Shown here piece by piece: positions 28,501-51,294 of a stretch of 64,000 nucleotides of DNA. This DNA is from Octopus vulgaris (taxonomy: Eukaryota). The DNA lies in NCBI GenBank assembly GCA_951406725.2, contig OX597820.1:73346001-73410000 (forward strand). The letters are read 5' to 3'. The notes below the pieces were generated by a model, which had not been told where the DNA came from, did not search any database, and worked only from the letters and a program-made list of their open reading frames with translations. Position numbers and translations under genes: made by a program. Numbering within the stretch: position 1 is the stretch's first letter; every line of letters begins with the position of its first letter.

Positions 28501-28623
28501 TTAAAAGTAACACAGCTATTTCCACTTCGTTAATCGCTATAATTATCCCTATGATTGTAACTGTCAAATTCATGACATTGTATATCAATGTAGATGCTAA
28601 CAACTTGTGTATGATTTAAAGTT

Positions 28624-28790
28624 GGATATTTCGACCATACTTCCTTTTGCAATGGATATTTCGTCCATACTTCCTTTCGCAATGGGTATTTCGACCTTAC
28701 TTCCTTTCGCAATGGATATTTCGTCCATACTTGCTTTCGCAATGGATATTTCGACCATACTTCCTTTTGCAATGGATATACCGACCATAT
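28624..28790. repeat. 30-bp minisatellite, ~5.5 units
   Basis: GGATATTTCG(A/T)CCATACTTCCTTT(T/C)GCAAT repeated; possibly subterminal repeats of a foldback-type DNA transposon. Confidence 0.85.
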
Positions 28791-49380: not shown

Positions 49381-49702
49381 TCACCGTGATCACCGTGACC
49401 GACCAGGCTATCAGACGTTACTACACATCGCTGGTCACAATGCGCTTCGCATTGTTTTAGCCTTCAAATGACGCCAGGCCAACAGAAGAGAGCGAGCAGG
49501 CCAACAGAAGAGAGCGAGCAGGCCAACAGAAGAAAGAGTGAGAGAAAGTTATGGCGAAAGAGTACAGCAGGGTTCGCCACTACCCCCTGTCGGAGCCTCG
49601 TGGAGCTTTTAGGTGTTTTCGCTCAATAAACACACACAACGCCCGGTCTGGGAATCGAAACCGCGAGTCCGCTGCCCTAACCACTGGGCCATTGCGCCTC
49701 CA
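49381..49702 (-). mobile_element. SINE family C
   Basis: tRNA-like head at 49702 reading leftwards. Confidence 0.8.
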
Positions 49703-49716
49703 CACATACATACATA

Positions 49717-49765
<49 letters not shown>

Positions 49766-49979
49766 CAATAATAATTCTCTAAAAGGGATATAGACAGTAA
49801 CTGCTCGATAACATAAGGGACTAAAGCCATCTGAATATGGCTAGGGACAGGGCAGGGTGGTGGGGGTGTTACTGTTGCATTTAGCCCCAGGCGAACATCG
49901 ACGTCACCAGAAAGGCTCGACACCGTCACGGTGCCCTAAACCTGCAAAGGGAGGTAATTCCCCGATGAAGCGGAAACCA

Positions 49980-50025
49980 CACACGGACCATGGTTTCAAG
50001 GTGTATTGCCTATCATCGGCGTGTG
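49980..50025 (-). ncRNA. Minimal type-I hammerhead ribozyme, unit 1
   Basis: Minus strand CACACG-CCGATGA-T-AGG-CAATACA-CCT-T-GAAAC-CATG-GTC-CGTGTG; predicted cut between 49986 and 49985. Confidence 0.85.
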
Positions 50026-50339
50026 GTAGGCCTCCGCTTCCTCGACGAATTCTCACTCTGCAGGATTTTCTTATATAGATTTTCAAGCAAAATACATTTG
50101 CTGATTTCGAAAATCTGTTCGAAAGCAATAATAATTCTCTAAAAGGGATATAGACAGTAACTGCTCGATAACATAAGGGACTAAAGCCATCTGAATATGG
50201 CTAGGGACAGGGCAGGGTGGTGGGGGTGTTACTGTTGCATTTAGCCCCAGGCGAACATCGACGTCACCAGAAAGGCTCGACACCGTCACGGTGCCCTTAA
50301 CCTGCAAAGGGAGGTAATTCCCCGATGAAGCGGAAACCA

Positions 50340-50385
50340 CACACGGACCATGGTTTCAAGGTGTATTGCCTATCATCGGCGTGTG
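50340..50385 (-). ncRNA. Minimal type-I hammerhead ribozyme, unit 2
   Basis: Identical to unit 1, +360. Confidence 0.85.
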
Positions 50386-50699
50386 GTAGGCCTCCGCTTC
50401 CTCGACGAATTCTCACTCTGCAGGATTTTCTTATATAGATTTTCAAGCAAAATACATTTGCTGATTTCGAAAATCTGTTCGAAAGCAATAATAATTCTCT
50501 AAAAGGGATATAGACAGTAACTGCTCGATAACATAAGGGACTAAAGCCATCTGAATATGGCTAGGGACAGGGCAGGGTGGTGGGGGTGTTACTGTTGCAT
50601 TTAGCCCCAGGCGAACATCGACGTCACCAGAAAGGCTCGACACCGTCACGGTGCCCTTAACCTGCAAAGGGAGGTAATTCCCCGATGAAGCGGAAACCA

Positions 50700-50745
50700 C
50701 ACACGGACCATGGTTTCAAGGTGTATTGCCTATCATCGGCGTGTG
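50700..50745 (-). ncRNA. Minimal type-I hammerhead ribozyme, unit 3
   Basis: Identical to unit 1, +720. Confidence 0.85.
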
Positions 50746-50850
50746 GTAGGCCTCCGCTTCCTCGACGAATTCTCACTCTGCAGGATTTTCTTATATAGAT
50801 TTTCAAGCAAAATACATTTGCTGATTTCGAAAATCTGTTCGAAAGCAATA

Positions 50851-50923
50851 ATAATTCTCTAAAAGGGATATAGACAGTAACTGCTCGATGCAGTTACTGT
50901 CTATATCCCTTTTAGAGAATTAT
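50851..50923. repeat. Perfect 34-bp fold-back terminating the array
   Basis: 50851-50884 = reverse complement of 50890-50923, 5-nt loop TCGAT. Confidence 0.95.
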
Positions 50924-51294
50924 AATAATAATAATGATAATAATAATAATAATAATAATCATATGCCCGATGCAGTACCAGGCAGTGGCTCTCATAGCTT
51001 CTCATCTTAACTGATTGGAAGTGTAATCATGTATATTGTTTTGTCTTGTATAAAAGATGGGCTACAGCAAATATGCTGCTCAATATCACAGATTTGCTTG
51101 TCAGTTGTTTGACCTTAACCAGTTGATCATCTCCTTTACTAGCTGACGATATGTTCATCTCTGATCACGAGCAGAAGTGGTGGGGGAGCATCTATCTATC
51201 TATATATATATATATATATATATATGACCTCGTGAATACTACCCGCAATTTTTTTTCCTCTGTCCTCCCGTCTCGGGATCTTTCTTTCTCCTAT

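Follow-up and report, generated by a model that had tools for sequence, protein, structure and literature searches.

A young non-LTR retrozyme family in the Octopus vulgaris genome with the insertion signature of Penelope-like elements (PLEs)

The tandem array and its surroundings

The window (the whole stretch of Octopus vulgaris DNA that was analysed, 64,000 nucleotides) contains at positions 49764-50889 a tandem array of 1,126 nt with a period of 360, corresponding to 3.13 head-to-tail units. The lone mismatch among them is at 49938, where A stands against T in the later units (u186), and the initial description of a 360-bp array with 3.1 units and one mismatch is thus confirmed. Units are numbered on the minus (ribozyme) strand, whereby u1 corresponds to 50123 and u360 to 49764. 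The features of the insertion are as follows:

49764..50889, minus strand: long arm of 3.13 units of 360 bp, with the fixed 3' end u360 against (TA)n and the 5' end at u315
49764..49809, minus strand: PLE-type 'tail' u315-360, the 44-46 nt that separate the two fixed 3' ends of the family
50890..50926, plus strand: short arm in inverted orientation, corresponding to about u320-353, which folds into a perfect hairpin whose loop has 5 nt
49702..49763, no strand: (TA)n-rich microsatellite, the left insertion target
50924..50960, no strand: (AAT)n tract on the right side, followed by another dispersed repeat
49938, no strand: u186 polymorphism, both letters being common genome-wide haplotypes, with the other letter in 70 of 180 units

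Both the inverted arm (37 nt, 97% complementary) and the (TA)n-rich microsatellite had been overlooked in the initial annotation. Unlike the usual two-arm (TA)n insertions described below, the second arm of this focal copy terminates in (AAT)n; it is atypical for the 360-bp family and likely of fold-back origin. The outer unit of the array belongs to a different genome-wide haplotype than the inner two. The unit has a GC content of 46.9%; a single ORF within it starts with ATG and reaches 40 aa or more, having 50 aa on the strand that lacks the ribozyme. Within the 64-kb window, no match to a PLE protein was obtained, and an ORF with RT and GIY-YIG between the repeats was absent. Both flanks of the array (49396-49700 and 50961-51185) are other dispersed repeats, and elsewhere in the window (28623-28789) there is a 30-bp minisatellite of 5.6 copies.

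Predicted hammerhead ribozyme and fold of the RNA

When both strands of the 64-kb window were scanned with a descriptor, three hammerhead motifs and no more were returned. All of them lie within the array on the minus strand, which bears out the earlier claim of a minus-strand type I hammerhead in each unit:

49980..50025, minus strand: type I hammerhead motif of unit 1, with U4C core and palindromic helix III; predicted cut between 49986 and 49985
50340..50385, minus strand: type I hammerhead motif of unit 2; predicted cut between 50346 and 50345
50700..50745, minus strand: type I hammerhead motif of unit 3; predicted cut between 50706 and 50705

The motif consists of a 6-bp helix I (CACACG/CGUGUG), the core CCGAUGA, helix II (AGG/CCU), GAAA, the palindrome CCAUGG and GUC, and cleavage is predicted after u138. 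The core departs from the canonical hammerhead by U4C, a point missed at first reading; according to PMC3088659, this change cuts cleavage in vitro considerably, yet suffices for viroid infectivity. A search of Rfam gave zero hits at the gathering score in the 64-kb window, and the 25 matches obtained up to E=10 in 49700-51000 did not include a hammerhead; the ribozyme call is therefore based on the descriptor and on conservation (see below). The miRNA hits of Rfam in the array region were rejected, as they correspond to the terminal hairpin and TA runs.

In comparison with shuffled sequences, the folding of the minus strand was more stable (z -4.55 as a linear molecule and -4.94 as a circle) than that of the plus strand (z -2.31 and -2.24, respectively). 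Of seven complementary pairs listed in the initial annotation, six are present in the circular MFE structure, while TAAGGG/CCCTTA is absent from it. The predicted minus-strand fold is branched. Hammerhead viroids and satellite circRNAs are likewise about 360 nt long, highly paired and furnished with a hammerhead. In comparison, the 360-bp family is encoded in the genome and has the ribozyme on one strand only, with a branched fold and no sign of RNA-to-RNA replication, so that the term 'viroid-like' was an overreach.

In the predicted monomer circle, the active ribozyme fold lies 7.4 kcal/mol above the MFE and the hammerhead core is mispaired, as has also been reported for some mussel retrozymes (PMC7229834). 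The duplex of the palindrome ACCAUGGU was calculated at -11.2 kcal/mol, approximately what it takes to open two ribozymes in a dimer. The predicted ribozyme may act as a dimer, and the palindrome swaps seen in the sister family (see below) are as expected for dimers as described in PMC4209133. For Xenopus, eight of nine retrozyme dimers are described as not cleaving (bioRxiv 10.64898/2026.07.22.740005).

A young family dispersed over the genome

The search of the genome (2.8 Gb, 227 contigs) gave at least 219 matches on many contigs, from 40 scored of 755 candidates, while an exact 32-base ribozyme pattern occurred 806 times and a 29-base pattern from elsewhere in the unit 1,463 times. Across the 40 top-hit loci, a sample biased to close copies, 271 of 64,385 aligned bases deviated from the unit of the window. 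The initial proposal of a young, dispersed family is well supported by these numbers, whereas a single-locus satellite, named there as the case against it, is excluded by the genome-wide dispersal of the units. Every feature of non-LTR retrozymes testable at the sequence level (PMC7229834) is found in the 360-bp family: tandem units in the range of 150-450 bp without LTR, non-coding and below 50% GC, dispersed in multiple copies, with a predicted hammerhead per unit, two or more in succession, and a highly self-paired monomer. Together with the insertion anatomy, the dispersal supports the earlier view of a non-LTR retrozyme made by reverse transcription.

A second subfamily differs from the window unit at 6-8 sites, and its only recurrent core change is at position 7. 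This position of the hammerhead core is a variable one. Many of the subfamily changes break pairs of the window unit's MFE structure. Haplotypes have themselves amplified, such as the subfamily with 58del+66T, which was initially considered as a private variant until it was found to be carried by 162 units. A mutation hot spot at u66-72 (p 1e-5 with 8 hand-picked sites) was dropped, since the changes of other subfamilies are spread along the unit. Among the long arrays, L081 has repeated internal variants at a spacing of 5 units, and L083 a cluster of four changes (u184-194) present in both arms.

Besides, a sister retrozyme family was found with a unit of ~350 bp, ~60% identical to the 360-bp unit. 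It is older, its copies being ~90% alike, and gave 2,589 candidates (L121-L150). Its core is the canonical CUGAUGA, helix II (GGG/CCC) is changed yet still paired, and the palindrome of helix III is CUCGAG or CCCGGG; the fold has a z of about -4.1, and the long end is the same, in (TA)n. Hence, the predicted ribozyme with its palindromic helix III is conserved across 40% divergence. RNAalifold gave 16 of 65 pairs changed on both sides, with local hairpins bearing compensatory changes, in what is essentially one comparison of two lineages; a formal covariation test against the sister family was non-significant (9 of 14 double changes paired against 6.8 expected, p ~0.09). A match to the tail in locus L079, considered as homology between the unit and a PLE, was rejected, as it represents a separate insertion of the sister family.

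Insertion anatomy

Sixty loci were examined, namely the 40 top hits and 20 further ones from two pattern listings. Two inverted arms pointing outwards were present in 46 of them, and in 41 of these 46 the arms ended at u357-360 (long) and u314-316 (short), mostly in (TA)n. By hand tally, the first 40 loci included 29 two-armed insertions, of which 26 were of the long+short type, with neither long+long nor short+short combinations, and 65 of 69 ends were at the two fixed sites. From reading of the alignments, 61 of these 65 ends enter (TA)n; read in the same way, the second 20 loci had the long+short combination in 15 of 17 two-armed cases. The focal copy is an exception to this pattern with the tail at one end. 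In both loci of the A315G haplotype the short terminal unit shows the letters of the target, placing the short end at or before u314 and giving a tail of ~46 nt. This tail is the part best conserved in the sister family (78% over 45 nt).

As opposed to the 3' ends, the 5' ends were scattered. There was no enrichment at the predicted cut site among the 66 ends tested, with one being within 3 nt of it against 1.3 expected, and the distribution was compatible with uniformity (KS p 0.32); the minus arm of L115 (unanchored) and L085 were left out of the 5'-end and haplotype tests. Fixed 3' and uniform 5' ends identify the ribozyme strand as the RNA strand, and uniformity around the unit excludes simple copying of cut linear monomers.

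According to Craig et al. (PMC8557442), inverted 5'-truncated copies and a tail of 30-40 bp are features of PLEs. The PLE protein of Anolis in vitro is described as cutting both strands of AT-rich DNA and starting reverse transcription at two internal RNA sites which bound the tail, and the element inserts without ribozyme cleavage (Frangieh et al., PMC11167929). In 41 of the 46 two-armed loci there is an inverted 5'-truncated arm and just one end bears the tail; this arrangement and the AT-microsatellite target are shared with PLEs, and the two fixed ends, tail and inverted arms constitute the published PLE insertion signature. The 360-bp family is thus very probably mobilised by a PLE. The initial annotation is supported as to a retrozyme and reverse transcription but did not name the PLE machinery, to which the insertion anatomy points.

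Circular or linear template

Both arms had the same haplotype in 25 of 25 loci tested, against 6.8 under shuffling; L092, L113 and L120 (no diagnostic cover, one arm) and, by oversight, L116 (concordant) were left out. A shared arm haplotype is, however, also expected from a uniform donor array. The variant T229C occurs five times genome-wide, always in one and the same insertion and in both of its arms, and no donor locus for it was found in this assembly. Several young haplotypes repeatedly show arms of 8-15 units, those of 14-15 units being found in different haplotypes. On the other hand, although an insertion as a rule carries one haplotype, the focal array, L083, L115 and L118 are internally mixed in haplotype, and a single uniform circle would leave this unaccounted for. 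In L118 the palindrome is nearly perfect, so that the second arm could have been copied from the first as DNA. In three of four runs guessed to be RNA there were contigs of 390 nt that close after 360 nt, although tandem DNA or multimers look alike in such contigs. Overall, the balance tilts towards a circular RNA template. Rolling-circle copying, as initially proposed, is plausible, but little can be drawn from the focal array in its favour, the outer unit there differing in haplotype from the inner two.

The most serious alternative retains the same PLE-driven family but assumes an uncleaved linear multimer as the template, whereby the weak U4C ribozyme seldom cuts and circles are uninvolved. 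Since long uniform arrays exist, linear multimers could be templates. However, 5'-truncated copying only shortens arrays, while arms of 8-15 units recur in young haplotypes; T229C lacks a donor locus in this assembly, and the predicted ribozyme and palindrome were kept across 40% divergence. A linear template is, therefore, regarded as rather unlikely.

Candidate helper elements

A search for GIY-YIG yielded two PLE families, each with an RT (RVT_1), a C-terminal GIY-YIG and a CX4CX2C linker; 150 of 6,136 and 150 of 18,165 endonuclease candidates were scored. Both families would be of the Neptune/Nematis type by the description in PMC8557442.

The first family has a 4,270-bp unit with a 775-aa RT-GIY-YIG frame. 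All 150 of its best scored hits were 99-100% identical in the endonuclease region, and 794-800 of 800 bases were identical among 30 copies (~99.7% identity); an intact autonomous PLE as young as the retrozyme is, therefore, present in the genome. It also inserts with inverted arms in (TA)n, having ends at 188 and up to 234, and four of five two-armed loci were of the long+short type. Its ends are up to 46 nt apart, a match to the retrozyme which is suggestive only because the long end is spread (6 at 234, 14 shorter). The hammerhead core of this family is CCGAAGA, with U4C as in the retrozyme. In the second family (781 aa), the body is 94-98% identical among copies, and it also has two ends and a (TA)n target, which weakens the identification of the helper. 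The 775-aa family is slightly more likely than not the helper of the 360-bp retrozyme.

No homology was detected between the 360-bp unit and the pLTR of the 775-aa family (score 27; 137 of 200 shuffles as high), and similarity to a partner pLTR or 3' end was lacking for both PLE families examined. By comparison, Xenopus retrozymes are described as resembling their PLEs (bioRxiv 10.64898/2026.07.22.740005), as are the Chlamys non-autonomous elements (PMC8557442). One might consider the unit itself as the pLTR of an unsampled autonomous PLE family and the arrays as its truncated copies, given the PLE-type ends and inverted arms and the 150 of 6,136 and 150 of 18,165 candidates scored. Yet up to 15 units follow one another head to tail without an intervening ORF, PLE coding fragments occurred at three of the first 40 loci, each several hundred bases off the array, and none of 50 PLE loci carries the unit as a pLTR, making this origin quite improbable. 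A satellite generated at the DNA level, by recombination or rolling-circle DNA with an incidental ribozyme motif, is hardly credible: the repeated internal variants of L081 and L083 do suggest later local duplication, but such an origin is at odds with 3' ends that are fixed and 5' ends that scatter, with the targeting of (TA)n, with folding that differs between the strands and with a conserved ribozyme.

An example of the very young and abundant 775-aa PLE, which inserts up to ~2.5 units, is L183:4954-9223 (G000:C3, ~5.86 Mb). Both PLE families (L183:6407-6497 and L064:2626-2704) have a further frame upstream, in -1 phase to the RT frame and overlapping it at a CAT-T-run common to the two; this run might serve as a slippery site or else as an intron acceptor. 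PLEs are described as having one ORF. The 781-aa family comprises L061-L078, and a U3-A8 covariant core with a palindromic helix III was seen at GIY-YIG loci, L062 and L077 among them. Pieces of PLEs adjoin or lie near retrozyme insertions at L087, L095, L114 and L166, consistent with shared TA targets, and at L166 a retrozyme insertion and a 775-aa PLE end are in one TA tract. Hammerhead-like motifs of other families were seen at L047, L130, L049, L073 and L074, including two more kinds with the U4C core.

Proposed mechanism and relation to known systems

The focal array is interpreted, with a probability of roughly 0.7, as one insertion of a young non-LTR retrozyme, likely copied into (TA)n by the RT-endonuclease of a co-resident PLE and probably from circular RNA. 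Arrays would be transcribed on the ribozyme strand, and adjacent hammerheads would pair via the ACCAUGGU palindrome and cut the transcript to 360-nt monomers to be ligated. The PLE protein would then bind the RNA near the tail, nick both (TA)n strands and prime one cDNA at ~u360 and the other at ~u314, each of variable length up to ~15 units; the two cDNAs would meet at short microhomology, resulting in a palindromic insertion. A stronger version is tentative and somewhat doubtful: a 360-nt circle without homology to its helper might hijack an amplifying PLE by structure alone, two rolling-circle cDNAs starting ~46 nt apart on the same circle at both nicked (TA)n strands, with the U4C-damped hammerhead in both elements keeping circles closed. 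If true, this would offer one compact model of how retrozymes are mobilised and of the inverted arms and tail of PLEs, a structure hitherto unexplained.

As to how animal retrozymes return to DNA, PLEs have been named as candidate mobilisers (PMC7229834), and a 2026 preprint (bioRxiv 10.64898/2026.07.22.740005) adds co-occurrence and pLTR homology, calling the mechanism unresolved. The 360-bp family bears the PLE insertion signature directly and shares the genome with a candidate helper that is intact and just as young. With its two start sites mapped and its target known, a 360-nt RNA brings the question within reach of an in vitro assay that is already published. The finding draws its weight from the insertion anatomy and the candidate helper rather than from the focal array by itself.

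The metazoan non-LTR retrozymes described in PMC7229834 (coral; mussel, 350-390 bp; axolotl, 330/350 bp) are alike in their non-coding tandem units of a few hundred bp, GC below 50%, one type I hammerhead per unit, strong self-pairing and co-existing PLEs. The present family differs from them in its U4C core and its inverted two-arm (TA)n insertions with fixed ends; the word 'inverted' is absent from the main text of that paper. The preprint shares the view of non-autonomous dependence on PLEs but relies on co-occurrence and pLTR homology, mainly in vertebrates, as opposed to the insertion anatomy without pLTR homology in octopus; 'tail' and 'mollus' are absent from its main text. EN+ PLEs (Anolis Poseidon, PMC11167929; Neptune, Nematis and Naiad, PMC8557442) are described with several of the same traits: partial tandems, a hammerhead, an insertion target of AT or (TA)n, two sites at which copying starts, a 5'-truncated arm in inverted orientation and a tail at one of the ends. 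By contrast, the 360-bp unit has no ORF, and its tail of 44-46 nt exceeds the 30-40 given for PLEs. Chlamys elements such as MRC1 (PMC8557442) are also non-autonomous PLE dependants with multicopy head-to-tail insertions; unlike the 360-bp family, they are green algal, their 3' end is reported to resemble the autonomous partner, and their clade to lack canonical hammerheads.

In the literature covered, neither this family nor a retrozyme with the two-arm, two-end signature was reported, and the words 'ribozyme' and 'retrozyme' are absent from the main text of an octopus repeat annotation (PMC13282606). The 360-bp element thus probably represents a new non-LTR retrozyme family, for which the genomic evidence of PLE mobilisation is unusually clear.

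Words of the unit were also present in runs labelled as six other organisms, with shares of 0.32-1.00.
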